From Escherichia coli (lineage in GTDB: Bacteria; Pseudomonadota; Gammaproteobacteria; Enterobacterales; Enterobacteriaceae): 64,000 bases of DNA. The stretch is taken from the NCBI RefSeq assembly GCF_022846255.1, contig NZ_AP025682.1; one strand, written 5' to 3'. Below, piece by piece: positions 19,230-60,398 of this stretch. The translations under genes and the position numbers were made by a program. The notes beneath the pieces were generated by a model. The model saw only the letters and a list, made by a program, of their open reading frames with translations, made no database searches and was not told the origin of the DNA. Position 1 is the first letter of the stretch; every line of letters starts with the position of its first letter.

Positions 19230-19360
19230 AACCAAACGACTCGGGGTGCCCTTCTGCGTGAAGGCTGAGAAATACCCGTATCACCTGATCTGGATAATGC
19301 CAGCGTAGGGAAGTCACGGACCACCAGGTCATTGCTTCTTCACGTTATGGCAGGAGCAAA
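19230..19360 (+). promoter_or_regulatory. TPP (thiamine pyrophosphate) riboswitch in the thiM leader
   Basis: CGACTCGGGGTGCCCTTCTGCGTGAAGGCTGAGAAATACCCGTATCACCTGATCTGGATAATGCCAGCGTAGGGAAGTCACGG matches the thiM aptamer (thi-box CUGAGA ... ACCUGAUCUGGAUAAUGCCAGCGUAGGGAA); the AGGAG SD just before the ATG is sequestered by the expression platform. Confidence 0.9.
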
Positions 19361-35498: not shown

Positions 35499-35585
35499 AA
35501 AAAATAAGCCCGTGTAAGGGAGATTACACAGGCTAAGGAGGTGGTTCCTGGTACAGCTAGCATTTTATGGGTTATGTTTTTCAGC
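35499..35585 (-). ncRNA. cyaR: CyaR (RyeE) Hfq-dependent sRNA
   Basis: Minus strand reads GCTGAAAAACATAACCCATAAAATGCTAGCTGTACCAGGAACCACCTCCTTAGCCTGTGTAATCTCCCTTACACGGGCTTATTTTTT, matching CyaR including the terminator hairpin and U-tract. Confidence 0.85.
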
Positions 35586-35669
35586 GAAACGGATGATAAC
35601 CTTAATAAATGCAGCTGTATGTGATCGGTTTCTAAGAATTTTCCATCCGGGAAAAATAATCGAAATTAA

Positions 35670-49663: not shown

Positions 49664-49805
49664 CGGAAAAGCCCCTCCCGAGGAAGGGGCCTTAAATAAG
49701 GAAAGGGTCATGATGAAGTGGATCATCATCGTGGTGCTCTTAGTGATTAGCTACCCAGCATACTAAGACTACCAGGGCGGGGGAAACCCCGCTCTACCCT
49801 CACTC
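49664..49805 (-). ncRNA. Sib-family antisense sRNA (antitoxin RNA); boundaries approximate
   Basis: Antisense to the ibs ORF; minus-strand terminator hairpin CCCCTTCC-TC-GGGAGGGG followed by CTTTTCC at about 49664-49690. The 5' end is estimated from the usual Sib length of about 140 nt. Confidence 0.45.
49710..49766 (+). CDS. Ibs-family type I toxin, 18 aa (MMKWIIIVVLLVISYPAY)
   Basis: Short hydrophobic ORF with SD AAGGAAAGGG; Ibs family signature MMK...LLVIS..AY. A or B assignment not attempted. Confidence 0.7.
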   Translation: MMKWIIIVVLLVISYPAY

Positions 49806-49991
49806 CTGAAAGTATGCCTTCACGGTCCAATTGTCAATCCGCAGACTTTGCAGTCTGCGATCCTGCCAGCAAATATTCTTTGCGAGTCGTTACGCAATAA
49901 TCACACTTGAAACTATTTTATCCGCAAGTCAGCGATAGACTGCATACAGGGCGAAAGGAGGTAAGCCGAAGATTTCAGCGGGACGCTGAAA

Positions 49992-50133
49992 CGGGAAAGC
50001 CCCTCCCGAGGAAGGGGCCTTAAATAAGGAAAGGGTCATGATGAAGCTACTCATCATCGTGGTGCTCTTAGTCATTAGCTGGCCAGCTTACTAAGACTAC
50101 CAGGGCGGGGGAAACCCCGCTCTACCCTCACTC
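49992..50133 (-). ncRNA. Sib-family antisense sRNA, second copy; boundaries approximate
   Basis: Same hairpin and terminator, offset by about 328 bp from copy 1. Confidence 0.45.
50038..50094 (+). CDS. Ibs-family type I toxin, 18 aa (MMKLLIIVVLLVISWPAY)
   Basis: Second copy within repeat unit 2; same SD and context. Confidence 0.7.
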   Translation: MMKLLIIVVLLVISWPAY

Positions 50134-50311
50134 CTGAAATTATGTCACTCCGCCCTTAGTGTCAATCGACGGCTCTCCGTTCTTGCGAGGCGAATAGCAA
50201 AATTTTCTGCGCCGCCGGGCCTAATTCTGAAAGTTTCTTCGTTTGCTCTTATTTCATTATTGCAATCGGTATGATACCGGACCTCAATAATTCTCTAAGA
50301 AAGGATTTCTT

Positions 50312-50971
50312 ATGAGCGAACAAATCACGTTTGCCACCAGCGATTTTGCCAGTAACCCGGAACCACGTTGCCCCTGCATTTTGCTGCTGGATGTTTCTGG
50401 CTCGATGAGCGGCAGACCCATTAATGAACTTAACGCCGGATTGGTTACCTTTCGCGATGAGCTGCTTGCCGACCCGCTGGCCTTAAAAAGAGTGGAACTC
50501 GGTATTGTGACGTTCGGCCCAGTGCATGTGGAACAACCCTTTACCAGCGCCGCTAATTTTTTCCCGCCCATCCTGTTTGCCCATGGGGATACACCAATGG
50601 GCGCCGCCATTACCAAAGCCCTGAATATGGTTGAGGAGCGCAAACGTGAGTATCGCGCCAATGGTATTTCCTATTATCGTCCGTGGATTTTCCTGATTAC
50701 CGATGGCGCACCAACCGATGAGTGGCAGGCTGCTGCCAACAAGGTGTTTCAGGGGGAAGAAGATAAGAAGTTTGCCTTCTTTTCCATCGGTGTTCAGGGG
50801 GCGGATATGAAGACGCTGGCCCAAATCAGCGTTCGTCAGCCTTTGCCATTGCAGGGATTACAATTCCGTGAACTGTTTAGCTGGTTATCCAGTTCGCTGC
50901 GTTCGGTTTCCCGCTCCACGCCGGGAACGGAAGTTGTGCTGGAAGCGCCAAAAGGCTGGACGTCAGTGTGA
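50312..50971 (+). CDS. yegL: vWA-domain protein YegL (TerY-like)
   Basis: 219 aa; MIDAS motif DVSGSMSG and downstream ITDGAPTD; 4-bp overlap with the next gene. Confidence 0.9.
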
Positions 50972-51729
50972 GCTGGCGTCTGGTCTATGCATCAACCGTT
51001 GGAACGTCGCACATCAGCGCGGACTTGCCTTGCCAGGATGCCTGCCAGATGCAGGTTGCCTGGTTAAATGACCAGCAGCCATTATTGTCGGTATTTGTCG
51101 CTGATGGCGCAGGCAGTGTCTCGCAGGGTGGCGAAGGTGCGATGCTCGCCGTCAATGAAGCGATGGCTTATATGTCGCAAAAAGTGCAGGGCGGGGAATT
51201 GGGGCTTAATGATGTCCTCGCAACGGACATTGTGCTGACCATTCGTCAGCGACTTTTTGCCGAGGCGGAAGCCAAAGAATTAGCGGTTCGCGATTTTGCC
51301 TGCACGTTTTTGGGATTGATTTCATCAGCTAATGGCACCTTGATTATGCAGATTGGCGATGGCGGCGTGGTGGTAGATTTGGGTCACGGTTTGCAACTGC
51401 CGCTCACGCCGATGGTGGGGGAATATGCCAATATGACGCACTTCATTACCGATGACGATGCTGTTTCCAGACTGGAAACTTACACCAGTACTGAGCGTGC
51501 GCATAAAGTTGCAGCATTTACGGATGGTATTCAGCGACTGGCGTTAAATATGCTGGATAATTCTCCGCATGTGCCTTTCTTTACCCCGTTTTTCAATGGA
51601 CTGGCGTCAGCAACGCAGGAACAACTCGATTTATTACCTGAATTGTTAAAGCAGTTTTTGTCCAGCCCGACGGTAAACGAGCGTACCGATGATGATAAAA
51701 CGTTGGCACTGGCGCTGTGGTTACCATGA
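50968..51729 (+). CDS. pphC: PP2C-like protein phosphatase PphC (YegK)
   Basis: 253 aa; conserved Asp-rich segments (VADGAGS, QIGDGG, FTDG) of PP2C-like phosphatases; overlaps yegI by 13 bp. Confidence 0.9.
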
Positions 51730-53666
51730 AACCCACTTTATATACTGCTACTGGTGAGTGCGTTACGCCTGGCCGTGAACTGGGCAAAGGCGGTGAAGGT
51801 GCGGTTTATGATATCGAGGAGTTTGCCGATAGCGTCGCCAAGATTTATCACACGCCGCCACCCGCCTTAAAACAGGACAAACTTGCCTTTATGGCTGCGA
51901 CAGCTGACGCGCAGTTGTTGAATTATGTCGCCTGGCCGCAGGCAACGCTTCACGGTGGACGAGGCGGAAAAGTTATCGGTTTTATGATGCCAAAAGTTTC
52001 TGGTAAAGAACCGATTCATATGATCTATAGCCCGGCACATCGTCGCCAGAGTTACCCTCATTGTGCGTGGGATTTTCTACTCTATGTTGCGCGCAATATT
52101 GCTTCATCTTTTGCTACTGTTCATGAGCACGGGCACGTCGTGGGTGACGTAAACCAGAACAGCTTTATGGTAGGTCGCGACAGCAAAGTGGTGTTGATTG
52201 ATAGCGACTCCTTTCAGATTAATGCCAATGGTACACTGCATTTATGCGAAGTCGGCGTGTCGCATTTTACGCCGCCAGAGCTGCAAACCATGCCATCATT
52301 TGTCGGCTTTGAACGCACAGAAAATCACGATAATTTTGGCCTTGCGTTGCTGATATTTCACATCTTGTTTGGTGGGCGGCATCCTTATTCCGGTGTACCG
52401 CTTATCTCTGATGCGGGTAATGCGCTGGAGACGGATATTGCCCATTTCCGTTATGCCTACGCGTCAGATAATCAGCGACGTGGTTTAAAACCGCCGCCAC
52501 GATCGATTCCGCTGTCGATGTTACCGGGCGATGTTGAAGCCATGTTTCAGCAGGCATTCACGGAAAGTGGCGTGGCAACCGGGCGTCCGACGGCAAAAGC
52601 GTGGGTAGCGGCACTTGATTTACTACGCCAACAGTTAAAGAAATGTACCGTTTCGGCAATGCATGTTTACCCCGCTCATTTGACTGACTGCCCGTGGTGT
52701 GCGCTGGATAATCAAGGCGTTATCTATTTTATTGATCTCGGCGAAGAGGTCATTACCACCGGCGGTGATTTTGTGCTGGCGAGAGTCTGGGCGATGGTGA
52801 TGGCGTCAGTAGCACCGCCAGCATTGCAATTACCATTACCCGATCATTTCCAACCGACTGGCAGGCCGCTTCCTTTAGGCCTGTTAAGGCGTGAATACAT
52901 CATTCTGATTGAGATCGCACTGTCAGCGTTATCGCTGCTGCTTTGCGGCCTTCAGACAGAACCACGTTATATTATTTTGGTTCCTGTGCTGTCGGCTATC
53001 TGGATTATTGGCAGCCTGACAAGCAAAGCGTACAAAGCAGAAATCCAGCAACGCCGTGAGGCGTTTAATCGTGCGAAAATGGACTATGACCATTTAGTCA
53101 GCCAGATCCAACAGTTGGGCGGGCTGGAAGGTTTTATCGCCAAACGGACGATGCTCGAAAAAATGAAGGACGAAATTCTTGGGTTACCGGAAGAAGAAAA
53201 GCGCGATCTGGCAGCACTTCAGGACACCGCAAGGGAACGGCAGAAGCAGAAGTTTCTGGAGGGATTTTTTATTGATGTTGCCTCTATTCCCGGCGTTGGC
53301 CCTGCGCGTAAAGCGGCGTTACGGTCCTTTGGTATTGAAACAGCAGCGGATGTTACCCGACGGAGCGTTAAGCAAGTGAAAGGTTTTGGTGATCATCTGA
53401 CCCAGGCGGTTATCGACTGGAAAGCGAGCTGTGAACGCCGTTTTTTGTTCAGGCCGAACGAAGCGGTAACGCCTGCAGACAGACAAGCGGTAATGGCAAA
53501 AATGGCCGCCAAACGACATCGGCTGGAATCGGCGCTGACTGTCGGTGCGACAGAGTTGCAGCGATTCCGCCTTCATGCTCCAGCACGGACCATGCCGTTG
53601 ATGGAACCGCTACGTCAGGCGGCAGAAAAACTGGCTCAGGCGCAGGCTGATTTAAGCCGTTGCTGA
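51717..53666 (+). CDS. yegI: atypical membrane-associated Ser/Thr protein kinase YegI
   Basis: 649 aa; Gly-rich loop GKGGEGAVY, Lys in VAKIYH, catalytic-loop-like HVVGDVNQNSF, LIDSDSF; two hydrophobic segments; C-terminal HhH-like IPGVGPARKAALRSFGIETAADV. Confidence 0.9.
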   Translation: MVTMKPTLYTATGECVTPGRELGKGGEGAVYDIEEFADSVAKIYHTPPPALKQDKLAFMAATADAQLLNYVAWPQATLHGGRGGKVIGFMMPKVSGKEPIHMIYSPAHRRQSYPHCAWDFLLYVARNIASSFATVHEHGHVVGDVNQNSFMVGRDSKVVLIDSDSFQINANGTLHLCEVGVSHFTPPELQTMPSFVGFERTENHDNFGLALLIFHILFGGRHPYSGVPLISDAGNALETDIAHFRYAYASDNQRRGLKPPPRSIPLSMLPGDVEAMFQQAFTESGVATGRPTAKAWVAALDLLRQQLKKCTVSAMHVYPAHLTDCPWCALDNQGVIYFIDLGEEVITTGGDFVLARVWAMVMASVAPPALQLPLPDHFQPTGRPLPLGLLRREYIILIEIALSALSLLLCGLQTEPRYIILVPVLSAIWIIGSLTSKAYKAEIQQRREAFNRAKMDYDHLVSQIQQLGGLEGFIAKRTMLEKMKDEILGLPEEEKRDLAALQDTARERQKQKFLEGFFIDVASIPGVGPARKAALRSFGIETAADVTRRSVKQVKGFGDHLTQAVIDWKASCERRFLFRPNEAVTPADRQAVMAKMAAKRHRLESALTVGATELQRFRLHAPARTMPLMEPLRQAAEKLAQAQADLSRC

Positions 53667-55164: not shown

Positions 55165-56013
55165 ATGTATACCCTGAACTGGCAGCCGCCATATGACTGG
55201 TCGTGGATGTTGGGATTTCTCGCCGCCCGTGCGGTGAGCGGTGTGGAAACGGTTGCGGACGATTATTATGCCCGTAGTCTGGCGATGGGCGAATATCGCG
55301 GCGTGGTGACTGCTATTCCGGATATAGCCAGCCATACTCTGCACATAAATTTAAGTGCAGGTTTAGAACCTGTTGCCGCTGAGTGTCTGGCGAAAATGAG
55401 CCGCCTGTTTGATTTGCAATGTAACCCGCAGATTGTTAACGGTGCGTTGGGCAAGTTAGGCGCGGCGCGGCCCGGATTGCGTTTACCCGGCAGTGTTGAT
55501 GCTTTTGAGCAGGGCGTGCGGGCGATTTTAGGCCAACTGGTGAGCGTGGCGATGGCGGCAAAATTGACCGCCAGAGTGGCACAGCTTTATGGCGAAAGGC
55601 TGGATGATTTTCCGGATTATGTCTGCTTCCCCACGCCTCAGCGGCTGGCAGCAGCAGATCCGCAGGCATTAAAAGCGTTAGGTATGCCGTTGAAACGGGC
55701 AGAGGCGCTGATTCATCTGGCAAATGCGGCGCTGGAGGGCACCTTACCAATGACAATACCGGGCGATGTGGAGCAGGCGATGAAAACGCTGCAAACTTTT
55801 CCGGGTATCGGGCGCTGGACGGCGAATTATTTCGCCTTGCGCGGCTGGCAGGCGAAAGATGTTTTCCTGCCGGATGATTATCTGATTAAACAGCGATTTC
55901 CGGGAATGACACCGGCACAAATCCGCCGTTATGCCGAACGCTGGAAGCCCTTGCGTTCTTATGCGCTGTTGCATATCTGGTATACGGAAGGCTGGCAACC
56001 AGACGAAGCATGA
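55165..56013 (+). CDS. alkA: DNA-3-methyladenine glycosylase II
   Basis: 282 aa, MYTLNWQPPYDWSWMLGFLAARAVSGVETV; HhH-GPD segment (FPGIGRWTANYFALRG). Confidence 0.95.
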   Translation: MYTLNWQPPYDWSWMLGFLAARAVSGVETVADDYYARSLAMGEYRGVVTAIPDIASHTLHINLSAGLEPVAAECLAKMSRLFDLQCNPQIVNGALGKLGAARPGLRLPGSVDAFEQGVRAILGQLVSVAMAAKLTARVAQLYGERLDDFPDYVCFPTPQRLAAADPQALKALGMPLKRAEALIHLANAALEGTLPMTIPGDVEQAMKTLQTFPGIGRWTANYFALRGWQAKDVFLPDDYLIKQRFPGMTPAQIRRYAERWKPLRSYALLHIWYTEGWQPDEA

Positions 56014-56020
56014 CGTTGGT

Positions 56021-56104
56021 CGCCGGATGCGGTGCGAGCGCCTTATCCGGCCTGGGGAATGAGCGATTTGTAGGCATGATAAGACGCGTTAGCGTCGCAT
56101 CAGG
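56021..56104. repeat. two REP elements
   Basis: GCCGGATGCGGTGCGAGCGCCTTATCCGGC and GCATGATAAGACGCGTTAGCGTCGCATCAGGC. Confidence 0.5.
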
Positions 56105-56121
56105 CAATGGGCAACGCTCCC

Positions 56122-59100
56122 TCAGTTAATCGCGAAATAACTGCTATTCACCAGCAAATCCAGTGGTTGGGCATCGGCAATCATATCGCCATAAATCAGA
56201 TCGACGCCGATGCCAGAAAGCGTATCCATCACCAGGGGTAAAACTACTGGCCCGGCGATGGTCTTCATCCCGAGCCGCTGAGCGTGCCCCTGAATGATCG
56301 TAATCAGCATCTCATCCATCAAATTTCCCTGCACATTGGCGCATAACTCACCATCAAGTAGCAGGTAATCTGCCATATTCGCTTTCAGCGAGTTGAAGAT
56401 TTGCAGATCGCGGCCCACCTGACTGAATACGATCCGACATCCCGCCAGCCGCAGTTTTTGCACGCTTTCTGCGTGATCTAAAATCGCGTCTGCCGGAATA
56501 ATCAGATGTAATAACCGTGGGGGTAGAGGGCTATTTTCCAGCTGCTCAATTAGTTCATTCACCAGCGTGGCGCTACTCAAACCGGCAACGGAAAGGGGGA
56601 GGGCGATACTTAAGCCTTTACTGGCAATCGCTTTTGCGGCCTGCTGGAAAAAATCGTGGAATACCCGTCGGTCAAGAGCATGGCTAAGTGCCGGATCGCT
56701 GAAGCTACGACGAAATGTTTGTTCATCAATAATCTCGCCTTCGCAACTCCAGAGCTTAAGTGAAATCAGCCACAAATTACGTGCTTCCGGGATCCGCGGC
56801 GAAGCGACACCGTGGGCGATCATCATCAACTGATTTTCTTTAATCATCCGCCACTGTTCATCAAGCGATATCGCCGCCCGTTCGCTATGTGTGGCAGCTT
56901 GCTGCGGTTCGTAAATCGTCACCCGGCCCCGTCCACCATTTTTGGAGGCATAACAGGCGATATCAGCCTGCGACATCACTTCAGCTGCCTGATGATTGTT
57001 GTCATCAATCAAGGTAATCCCGGCACTGGCACCTACCCGATGTACTCGTCCTTCCCAGATAAAGTGATAGTCATTAACGGCGCTGATAATGCGTGTAGCG
57101 ATAAAACGCGCACTTTCGACATTACAGTCTGGCAGCAGCAGACCAAATTCATCGCCACCGAGTCGCGCCAGCACGTCGCTGGAGCGCAGCATACTCAGCA
57201 TCAATGACGCCAGTTCGCGCAACAAAGCGTCGCCAGCGGCGTGCCCGGCGCTGTCATTCACCGCTTTAAAGCGATCAAGATCGATAAACACCAGTGCATG
57301 TCGCTGATGTGTACTGTTTACCGTTTGCAGCAGGATGCGTAGTTGCTTCTCAAAACTGGCGCGATTGGCGAGATGCGTCAGTGCATCATGGGAGGCGCTG
57401 TAGCTCAGCTGGCGCAGCATTTTACGTGATTCGGTGACGTCCTGAATCACCAGAACCGAGCCTATATTGCTGCCGTCCAGAGTACTTAACGGCGTAATAC
57501 TGTAATGCACGTCGTAGCTGCCGCCGCTTCGGCAGTGCAACACCACATCTTGTTCAATCGCGGAACGTGAGGTGTCGGCACTGTAAATGTTCTCCATTAA
57601 TGGTCCGTTGTCGCCAAAAGTAATATGCAACACCGTCAGGAGCGGAACACCTAACGCTTCTTCCTGCGTCCAGCCGCTCATCTTCTCCGCCACCGGATTC
57701 ATAAAGGTAATTTTCATTGCCATATCAATACAGACCACGGCTTCGCCGATGGAATCAAGCGTAATGTGCAGGCGCTCTTTTTCCTGAAACAATGCCTCGT
57801 TAAGCTGTTTCACTTCGGTCATATCCATATTAATGCCGAGCAGGCGTTCGACTTCGCCTTCTTTATTCAGTACCCGGTTGGCGAGGGCGCGGATATGGCG
57901 AATGCCGTCTTTCACGGTAATGCGAAATTCCAGTTTAAAGGGAGAGCGTGATTGCAATGAATCGCGAATCACTTTTTCGGCGTGCTGGCGATCTTCCGGC
58001 AGTACGCACTCGTACCACACCTGCCAGTTCGGTTTGATATGCGGAGGAATTTCATACAGCTCGAACATCCGCTTATCCCAGCTAAAAATATTCGGCTTTA
58101 GCTCCCACTCCCAGATGCCAATCCCGCCCGCTTCGTTAGCCAGCGTGATGCGCTCCATCAGTTGCTGGTTCACCTGTTCGGTGCGTTTTAGCTCGTTAAT
58201 GTCTTCAATCTGAGCGATAAAATAGAGCGGCGTACCATCGGTGTGGCGCACCAGTGAGACGGCAAGCAACGCCCAGACAACATCGCCATTGCGGTTGTAG
58301 TAGCGTTTTTCCATTGAATAGGTGTTTATTTCACCGCTGATCAGCTTTTCAACCTGTTGCAGATCTTTATTGAGATCCTCCGGCCAGGTCAGTTGCTGAA
58401 AGGTGAGTCCGCGCAGCTCTTCCTGACTGTAACCGAGAAACTGGCAGAGTGCTTTGTTGGATTGCAGCCATTGTCCCTCGGTGCCCACTAATGCCATGCC
58501 GATGGCGGAATATTCCATGGCATTACGAAAACGGGTTTCGCTTTCGGAAATGTGTTTGCGTTCCGCACGAAAGGCATACATCACCATGGTCATGATGTTG
58601 GCGGGCAGCAGGATCAGCAAAAACGGTAGCCACGGCATATGGCTCATCAGGTATGTACGCGGCGTAGCAAGCAGGGAGGGATCCGCGGCCATCATCAGTG
58701 ACACCATCATCACCGTGGTAAGGAAGATCAAAAAGGCTTCCATTCGTGGCAGGCGCACGGCGCTCCACATCAACAGCACAATAATGAAAGTAAAAGGCCA
58801 CGGCAGATACAGCATCGAAAGCCAGCTTAACGTCAGTGTGATGGCTAACGTGAGCAGCGACTCAAAAAGCAACCGTGGGTTGCGATGGCGCAGCAGATAG
58901 TGTGGTTTAAATAACAATCCCAGCGGCACCAGTGCCAGTGCGCCGATGGATTCTGACAGTACCCATATCAAAAATGCCCTGAGAGGATCGTCTCCGGGCG
59001 TCAGCAGGACAACCAGAACACCCCCCAACAGAGGCGGAATAATGGCGCTGCCGAGTGCCAGACGCAGCCAGTCAGCCAGATTTTGCAAGGGGTTATACCA

Positions 59101-59439
59101 CGGCAGCAATTTACGTAGCAGCACTGCCCCGACCACGGCTTCAACAATATTGATGGTCGTCCAGGTCATGTTCAGCGAGCTGGTGGAAAAAAGCAGGATG
59201 GATGCGGCGATATTTCCCAGCGAGCAGCTCAGCGCAATTCCCGGCCACATGCGCCCGGCATGGCGATAAAACGCCACCATCATGATGGACGTCGGGAACC
59301 ACAGTGGGGCGAGTTGGGTGCCAAACTGCGAAAGCTCAAGTGAGAAAAGGGTGAAGATAAACGAGACTAAACCTAAACTGACCAGGTGAAGCAGCGGGTG
59401 GGGCAGGGCAATTAATACATGCTGTGATTGTTTGCTCAT
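56122..59439 (-). CDS. dgcE: diguanylate cyclase DgcE (YegE): MASE1 - PAS x3 - GGDEF - degenerate EAL
   Basis: 1105 aa; N-terminal polytopic domain, PAS repeats, RLGGDEF motif (ARLGGDEFGLL), C-terminal EAL-like domain. Confidence 0.95.
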   Translation of the reverse strand: MSKQSQHVLIALPHPLLHLVSLGLVSFIFTLFSLELSQFGTQLAPLWFPTSIMMVAFYRHAGRMWPGIALSCSLGNIAASILLFSTSSLNMTWTTINIVEAVVGAVLLRKLLPWYNPLQNLADWLRLALGSAIIPPLLGGVLVVLLTPGDDPLRAFLIWVLSESIGALALVPLGLLFKPHYLLRHRNPRLLFESLLTLAITLTLSWLSMLYLPWPFTFIIVLLMWSAVRLPRMEAFLIFLTTVMMVSLMMAADPSLLATPRTYLMSHMPWLPFLLILLPANIMTMVMYAFRAERKHISESETRFRNAMEYSAIGMALVGTEGQWLQSNKALCQFLGYSQEELRGLTFQQLTWPEDLNKDLQQVEKLISGEINTYSMEKRYYNRNGDVVWALLAVSLVRHTDGTPLYFIAQIEDINELKRTEQVNQQLMERITLANEAGGIGIWEWELKPNIFSWDKRMFELYEIPPHIKPNWQVWYECVLPEDRQHAEKVIRDSLQSRSPFKLEFRITVKDGIRHIRALANRVLNKEGEVERLLGINMDMTEVKQLNEALFQEKERLHITLDSIGEAVVCIDMAMKITFMNPVAEKMSGWTQEEALGVPLLTVLHITFGDNGPLMENIYSADTSRSAIEQDVVLHCRSGGSYDVHYSITPLSTLDGSNIGSVLVIQDVTESRKMLRQLSYSASHDALTHLANRASFEKQLRILLQTVNSTHQRHALVFIDLDRFKAVNDSAGHAAGDALLRELASLMLSMLRSSDVLARLGGDEFGLLLPDCNVESARFIATRIISAVNDYHFIWEGRVHRVGASAGITLIDDNNHQAAEVMSQADIACYASKNGGRGRVTIYEPQQAATHSERAAISLDEQWRMIKENQLMMIAHGVASPRIPEARNLWLISLKLWSCEGEIIDEQTFRRSFSDPALSHALDRRVFHDFFQQAAKAIASKGLSIALPLSVAGLSSATLVNELIEQLENSPLPPRLLHLIIPADAILDHAESVQKLRLAGCRIVFSQVGRDLQIFNSLKANMADYLLLDGELCANVQGNLMDEMLITIIQGHAQRLGMKTIAGPVVLPLVMDTLSGIGVDLIYGDMIADAQPLDLLVNSSYFAIN

Positions 59440-59756
59440 TACCGCTTTATCCGCAAGGCCAGGTCGCCAGTATTCGTTTCTGTGTTTATGCTAGTACAAA
59501 AGTTTTACATTTTATATGCGAATTGCTCATAAAGTGACGTAAAGGCGGATAATTTGCGCAACTGCGTATAACATTTTTTACCTTGTATAAAACTGATCAA
59601 CGTAATTTGCCACCGGGAATTCTTCGTCAACAATTAACTCTGAGCGCGCGGCAACGCTATTCGACTGGTATCAGGCGGATGAAATCCCTATAATTGCCGC
59701 GTTTGGCGCTTCGTCGCCCCCTTCCTAACATCCAGGTTAATCAGGTCGCTAAATAT

Positions 59757-60398
59757 ATGACTGATCAGTCTCATCAGTGCGTCATTATCGGTATCGCTGG
59801 CGCATCGGCTTCCGGCAAGAGTCTTATTGCCAGTACCCTTTATCGTGAATTACGTGAGCAAGTCGGTGATGAACACATCGGCGTAATTCCCGAAGACTGC
59901 TATTACAAAGATCAAAGCCATCTGTCGATGGAAGAACGCGTTAAGACCAACTACGACCATCCCAGCGCGATGGATCACAGCCTGCTGCTTGAGCATTTAC
60001 AAGCGTTGAAACGCGGCTCGGCAATTGACCTGCCGGTTTACAGCTATGTTGAACATACGCGTATGAAAGAAACGGTGACGGTTGAGCCGAAGAAGGTCAT
60101 CATTCTCGAAGGCATTTTGTTGCTGACGGATGCGCGTTTGCGTGACGAACTTAACTTCTCCATTTTCGTTGATACCCCGCTGGATATCTGCCTGATGCGC
60201 CGCATCAAGCGTGACGTTAACGAGCGTGGGCGTTCAATGGATTCAGTGATGGCGCAATATCAAAAAACCGTGCGTCCGATGTTCCTGCAATTCATTGAGC
60301 CTTCTAAACAATATGCGGACATTATCGTGCCGCGCGGCGGGAAAAACCGCATCGCCATCGATATATTGAAAGCGAAAATAAGTCAGTTCTTTGAATAA
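59757..60398 (+). CDS. udk: uridine/cytidine kinase
   Basis: 213 aa from [23 protein letters not shown] (P-loop). Confidence 0.95.

Follow-up and report, generated by a model that had tools for sequence, protein, structure and literature searches.

The window, a stretch of 64,000 nucleotides of Escherichia coli DNA, carries an intact orthologue of dgcE (yegE), which encodes a membrane-anchored diguanylate cyclase. The encoded protein very probably combines a MASE1 domain, three PAS domains, a GGDEF domain with its active site and a C-terminal EAL fold that is catalytically dead (EALdeg), and works by the mechanism described for DgcE of K-12, here extended to the window allele. In E. coli biofilms, DgcE is the top-level trigger of the curli and cellulose matrix. 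Its architecture, with the degenerate EAL domain as one part of it, is already known and published from the genetic dissection by Pfiffer et al. (2019, PMC6510439). The additions made by the present analysis are modest: a residue-by-residue table of the former catalytic positions, an estimate of how far constraint on EALdeg is relaxed (about tenfold), and the demonstration of a clade-wide degeneracy in MASE1-PAS-GGDEF-EAL proteins. For the strain itself, an intact dgcE means that the curli/cellulose c-di-GMP pathway has probably been kept, and nothing more.

The coding sequence was identified from the list of open reading frames (ORFs) and its translation. Exactly one long ORF, running from ATG to TGA on the minus strand and encoding 1105 amino acids, fills the interval listed for dgcE in Table 1, and translation of the plus strand over the same interval gives many stops. 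The initial annotation had given no strand for the gene. The protein was matched by the NCBIfam equivalog model NF007298 with 2066.7 bits against a cutoff of 1135 (residues 1–1105 on profile positions 1–1111), and a gap-free alignment with K-12 DgcE (YegE, b2067), a protein of equal length, resulted in 1088 identical residues out of 1105 (98%). Because the profile matches are strong and the identity to a named protein is this high, a chance match is excluded, and the initial annotation of the gene as a 1105-residue DgcE is confirmed. The two proteins share their length, domain order, GGDEF and RSSD motifs, the residues at the former EAL catalytic positions and the flanking genes. They differ by 17 substitutions, all of them conservative and none within a motif, and 14 of these are located after residue 840, in the linker and EALdeg. 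At the nucleotide level, the window and K-12 alleles are 99% identical in the MASE1-coding part and 93–97% identical (about 95.5%) downstream, a difference that could stem from recombination within the gene, exchanging input and output modules among E. coli lineages. Of 5426 complete E. coli genomes, 5400 carry the gene at a coverage of at least 80%, and 5401 match the surrounding 5.5 kb over 80% or more of its length; in every match listed, the features annotated under these 5.5 kb are dgcE, alkA, udk, yegD, and dcd. In S. flexneri and a number of pathogenic E. coli, dgcE is a pseudogene (PMC11327459); the window copy is intact.

Table 1. Features of the dgcE locus and residues of the encoded protein, in coordinates of the window
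Feature	Residues	Positions	Strand	Basis
dgcE (yegE) coding sequence	1–1105	56122..59439	-	1105 codons and TGA stop; ORF list, translation, K-12 identity, NF007298
MASE1 membrane domain	19–294	58558..59385	-	Pfam PF05231, profile positions 2–298 of 299, 124.4 bits (cutoff 29.8), E=6e-36
PAS1	303–414	58198..58533	-	Pfam PAS/PAS_3/PAS_9
PAS2	452–537	57829..58086	-	Pfam PAS_3, 44.6 bits, residues 420–550 scanned alone
PAS3	555–672	57424..57777	-	Pfam PAS_4 and PAS_8
GGDEF diguanylate cyclase domain	682–838	56926..57396	-	Pfam PF00990, profile positions 1–160 of 161, 155.7 bits, E=1e-45
I-site RSSD (RxxD)	752–755	57175..57186	-	Regular expression and translation
A-site GGDEF motif	761–765	57145..57159	-	Regular expression and translation
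EALdeg, degenerate EAL domain	859–1098 (fold model)	56146..56865	-	Partial Pfam EAL match, AlphaFold2, Foldseek
Q of QP	S880			MAFFT; H877 by phmmer; position ambiguous, neither is Gln
E of EAL (motif position reads ISL)	I892 (I892-S893-L894)	56758..56766	-	MAFFT --add; phmmer alignment to P. aeruginosa FimX EVLLR agrees
R two residues after EAL motif	L896			Alignment to active phosphodiesterases
Conserved N	P948			Alignment to active phosphodiesterases
First and second E of ExTE	I980, A983			Alignment to active phosphodiesterases
Metal-binding DDFG (reads SQVG)	DD = S1006, Q1007; through G1009	56413..56424	-	Phosphodiesterase and RbdA/PA0861 alignments
K of KxD	L1027			Alignment to active phosphodiesterases
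Two E of EGVE	G1063, V1066			Alignment to active phosphodiesterases
Q of QG	Y1083			Alignment to active phosphodiesterases
alkA	neighbour, convergent	55165..56013	+	ORF; annotation of matching E. coli records
udk	neighbour, divergent (213 aa from ATG)	59757..60398	+	ORF; annotation
alkA-dgcE convergent spacer		56014..56121	.	Inverted repeats: imperfect palindromes at 56022–56051 and 56072–56105
dgcE-udk divergent control region		59440..59756	.	317 bp

The domains upstream of the EAL-like part were assigned with Pfam HMMs, which gave an N-terminal, full-length MASE1 match followed by three PAS domains, in agreement with the MASE1 domain and PAS repeats proposed from the letters alone; the TIGR00229 model likewise matched three stretches of DgcE. 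The GGDEF domain matched its Pfam model over nearly the full length of the profile, and all of the hallmarks examined (DALTHLANR, DLDRFKAVND, GHAAGD, and ADIACYASKNGGR) were found by regular-expression search and translation. The string RLGGDEFGLL, from which the domain had first been called active-looking, is located at residues 759–768. A GG(D/E)EF A-site and the GTP/Mg2+-binding motifs, the sequence features expected of an active diguanylate cyclase, are thus present in the PF00990 domain. The RSSD motif is followed by VLARL and then by GGDEF, which places RxxD five residues upstream of GGDEF, as in diguanylate cyclases regulated through an I-site; Table 1 of PMC11327459 gives this I-site for dgcE as well. 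With both the A-site and the RxxD product-inhibition site intact, the GGDEF domain of DgcE looks active. The motif is needed in K-12, where a GGAAF mutant is reported to lose output (PMC6510439).

The C-terminal domain was then compared with the EAL domains of seven active phosphodiesterases of K-12 (PdeL, PdeR, DosP, PdeK, PdeF, PdeC, and PdeH), which served as references. A profile was made from these seven domains and the C-terminus of DgcE was aligned to it with MAFFT --add. None of the 13 EAL signature positions is retained in DgcE (Table 1), where the first four (Q, E, L, and R) were mapped by MAFFT and, independently, by phmmer against FimX, and local hmmsearch/hmmalign to the active-EAL profile leaves these four unaligned in all DgcE-like sequences. 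In contrast, the active enzymes PdeR, PdeF, DosP, PdeL, RbdA, and RocR keep 12–13 of the 13. HMMER alignments to solved structures (the active RbdA/PA0861, and FimX) resulted in the same residue mapping, with the exception of the Gln of QP. An alignment of only three sequences (EALdeg, PdeH, and PdeL) made with MAFFT was unreliable near the motif and was replaced by the seven-enzyme profile. A regular-expression search found neither E-x-L-x-R nor DDFG anywhere in the DgcE protein; in the control enzymes, the same search found DDFG in all seven and E-x-L-x-R in six, the exception being PdeH, with its known variant ELL of the EAL motif. The match to the Pfam EAL model is restricted to residues 898–1088 (56176–56748) and profile positions 39–234 of 236, with 72.3 bits against a gathering threshold of 31.3, and because it begins at profile position 39, the motif, which lies in the N-terminal part of the profile, is unaligned. 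The initial annotation had described an EAL-like domain without an obvious EAL motif and had named an intact motif on alignment as its refutation; instead, ISL occupies the motif position, and every catalytic, metal and substrate position is substituted. Judged from these alignments, the C-terminal domain has lost every residue required for metal binding, c-di-GMP binding, and hydrolysis, a loss that excludes phosphodiesterase activity as far as sequence can. According to the K-12 study, too, hardly any of the EAL residues that bind c-di-GMP or metal or act in catalysis are conserved in DgcE (PMC6510439).

The fold of the domain was modelled with AlphaFold2. For residues 846–1105, the model has a mean pLDDT of 83.2 and a pTM of 0.83, values obtained with a shallow input alignment of two DgcE alleles and seven canonical EAL domains that biases the model toward the EAL fold. 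The model contains a helix and β-strands within the stretch left unaligned by Pfam. A Foldseek search superposed more than 100 solved EAL domains on it with TM-scores of 0.73–0.83 over approximately 240–260 columns, among them FimX, LapD, RbdA, RocR, and TBD1265; the active RbdA and RocR share the EAL fold with the C-terminal domain of DgcE at TM-scores of 0.77–0.83. As modelled, EALdeg has kept its fold while losing its chemistry. In FimX and LapD, c-di-GMP is contacted by QP, EVLxR, and KxD and the GGDEF domains are degenerate; the GGDEF domain of DgcE, in contrast, is of the active kind. If EALdeg were a catalytically dead receptor of this type, it would sense the product of DgcE itself, and the likeness is appreciable: FimX (from P. 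aeruginosa and Xanthomonas) and LapD also place a catalytically dead EAL fold after a GGDEF-type domain, the EAL domains of FimX are the best matches in the PDB by both sequence and fold, LapD is matched as well, and the change of DD to SQ is common to DgcE and FimX. We nevertheless regard such a receptor as very unlikely, as the residues that FimX keeps for its ligand are missing from DgcE. The QP, EVLLR, and KID of FimX align to H-G (or S-P), ISLKL, and LLD, so that the ligand contacts are not found in DgcE, and the Glu of EGVE and the Gln of QG are also substituted. The c-di-GMP-binding positions are reported as unconserved in the K-12 study (PMC6510439), and the RSSD I-site already provides product feedback.

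Selection on the gene was estimated from the window and K-12 alleles, which gave a dN/dS of 0.015 for residues 1–842 and of 0.159 for residues 843–1105 (Fisher p=5e-5), a contrast that represents essentially one deep allele split, with the third allele, DETEC-S792, being nearly identical to that of the window downstream of MASE1. By this estimate, the EAL-like part is approximately tenfold less constrained, yet still under purifying selection (dN/dS <1). To place the degeneracy among relatives, EALdeg was searched exhaustively against 1.84 billion cluster representatives. This search resulted in 3234 matches, just 15 of which reached E<=1e-30, and the 117 matches of at least 230 amino acids that matched the active-EAL profile were scored for the 13 positions. 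In the closest representatives (P0001 to P0035), 0–4 of the 13 survive, with replacements that differ in each; the only one common to them is Gly at the first Glu of EGVE. Nearly all of the more distant matches among the 117 keep 12–13. In the nine nearest full-length relatives, all of them degenerate, MASE1, PAS, GGDEF, and a partial EAL match were present without exception, the GGDEF motif was intact in all nine and RxxD in eight. Identity to these relatives is highest in the GGDEF domain (53–64%) and among the lowest in EALdeg (25–41%). The EAL degeneracy is thus ancient and shared by a whole DgcE-like clade, and EALdeg is retained for something different from the chemistry it once performed.

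What that something is can be asked beyond the generic steric brake described below. EALdeg evolves approximately tenfold faster than the rest of DgcE under purifying selection, its former catalytic residues are specific to each relative, and identity to the K-12 allele drops downstream of the MASE1-coding part. The domain could therefore offer a rapidly evolving interaction surface, tuned in each lineage to a partner protein or to some ligand that is not c-di-GMP, although we consider this improbable. The same rapid evolution, together with the low identity among relatives and the free variation of the former catalytic positions, would also be expected of a functionless remnant drifting toward loss. 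This explanation has little to recommend it, as purifying selection is still clear from a dN/dS of 0.16, the reading frame and full fold are kept, all nine of the distant relatives checked have the domain, and its deletion in K-12 is reported to have a phenotype (PMC6510439). A bifunctional DgcE, in which the EAL-like domain still degrades c-di-GMP via a non-canonical active site, would fit the predicted retention of a complete EAL fold and a Pfam score above the gathering threshold, but is hardly credible given that all four acidic metal ligands, along with the catalytic Lys and the general-base Glu, are among the lost signature positions, that the varying replacements among relatives leave no alternative catalytic set conserved, and that the rise in output on deletion of the domain in K-12 is credited by its authors to altered oligomerisation and not to hydrolysis (PMC6510439).

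The preferred reading is a DgcE in which an apparently active GGDEF domain is joined to a dead EAL fold, and by analogy we infer that the K-12 mechanism applies unchanged to the 98%-identical allele of the window. MASE1 and PAS3 are both described as activating in K-12, where the PAS3 region dimerises (Pfiffer et al. 2019, PMC6510439), and the GGDEF domains of the window protein would make c-di-GMP once it dimerises or oligomerises through PAS3. RdcA together with RdcB is reported to bind MASE1 and to activate DgcE, probably as GTP drops on entry into stationary phase (PMC6510439); low GTP would thus lead this dynamin-like GTPase, with RdcB, to dock on MASE1 and promote the assembly of DgcE. 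The interaction of RdcA/RdcB with DgcE is known just from two-hybrid and genetic work in K-12 (PMC6510439); rdcA and rdcB are located outside the window. MASE1 also drives continuous N-to-C proteolysis in K-12 and would likewise mark the window protein for continuous proteolysis (PMC6510439). Deletion of EALdeg in K-12 resulted in higher output, a stabilised protein, and the formation of higher oligomers, and because EALdeg itself dimerises, it was proposed to interfere sterically with productive oligomerisation (PMC6510439). In the window allele, EALdeg would correspondingly be an inhibitory, self-dimerising module that opposes productive oligomers. The c-di-GMP made by DgcE would then relieve the inhibition of DgcM/MlrA by PdeR and so turn on csgD, curli, and cellulose (PMC6510439).

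The genomic context agrees with this assignment. The gene had been described at the outset as adjoining alkA and divergent from udk, and both neighbours are placed as in annotated E. coli genomes, each on the plus strand. The gene order of alkA (convergent), dgcE, udk (divergent), dcd, and asmA is that of K-12, and dgcE occupies the orthologous udk-dgcE-alkA-yegD position, collinear with K-12 and strain DETEC-S792. The dgcE promoter is reported to be sigma-S dependent (PMC6510439); a promoter and terminator scan of 55900–59800 found no promoter for dgcE, with no more hits than in shuffled sequence, and Rfam gave no match inside or adjoining the gene. The sole sigma-70-like site found in the dgcE-udk control region points toward udk. 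On the other side of the gene, the spacer shared with alkA contains imperfect palindromes that are presumably REP-like.

Comparison of dgcE with its K-12 allele showed that divergence across the gene is mosaic. Codons 1–300, which encode MASE1 (window 58540..59439), are 99% identical to K-12 with a dS of 0.03; codons 301–1105 (window 56125..58539) are 93–97% identical with a dS of 0.14–0.25, and the flanks of the gene are ~97% identical. Recombination within the gene, with a breakpoint close to where MASE1 meets PAS1, could have produced this pattern, as could unusual conservation of the MASE1-coding part. In another strain, E. coli CFS3273, the dgcE locus is truncated: the match (H40, NZ_CP026932.2 3559849-3560972) is limited to the first 34% of the gene and carries the annotation 'MASE1 domain-containing protein', in agreement with the dgcE pseudogenes reported in pathogenic E. 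coli (PMC11327459).

The nearest relatives with the canonical 13/13 EAL signature, in which all 13 signature positions are retained, are P0033 (1142 aa) and P0040 (1003 aa). Because both combine this signature with a length similar to that of DgcE and a GGDEF or GADEF motif, these proteins are candidates for a non-degenerate sister lineage.

No close match to the window was found among complete RefSeq E. coli genomes, the top match being 97.8% over window 1–25000 and, at the dgcE locus only, 99.0–99.3%, for strain DETEC-S792. A lineage-specific 36-mer of the window was not found in any species-representative genome. The window comes from an under-sampled E. coli-group lineage. It also has no counterpart of K-12 2150935–2151720, a 785-bp segment that includes yegJ, which lies on the opposite strand and encodes a DUF2314 protein. 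At the corresponding site (window 51720..51770), a pphC-like phosphatase ORF (50968..51729) and a yegI-like Ser/Thr kinase ORF (51717..53666) overlap directly, and yegL-pphC-yegI therefore forms an uninterrupted same-strand run.

No canonical terminator was called by the terminator scan in the convergent alkA-dgcE spacer (56014..56121), which contains two imperfect palindromes that we take to resemble REP/BIME elements. Among the RNA elements identified elsewhere in the window, the two Sib RNAs are the sibA/sibB-ibs toxin-antitoxin pair of K-12.

RNA elements and spacer palindromes located in the window
Feature	Position	Strand	Basis
TPP riboswitch	19232..19328	+	Rfam, gathering threshold
CyaR sRNA	35502..35587	-	Rfam, gathering threshold
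Sib antitoxin RNA	49695..49837	-	Rfam, gathering threshold
Sib antitoxin RNA	50023..50165	-	Rfam, gathering threshold
Imperfect palindrome	56022-56051		Sequence and inverted repeats
Imperfect palindrome	56072-56105		Sequence and inverted repeats
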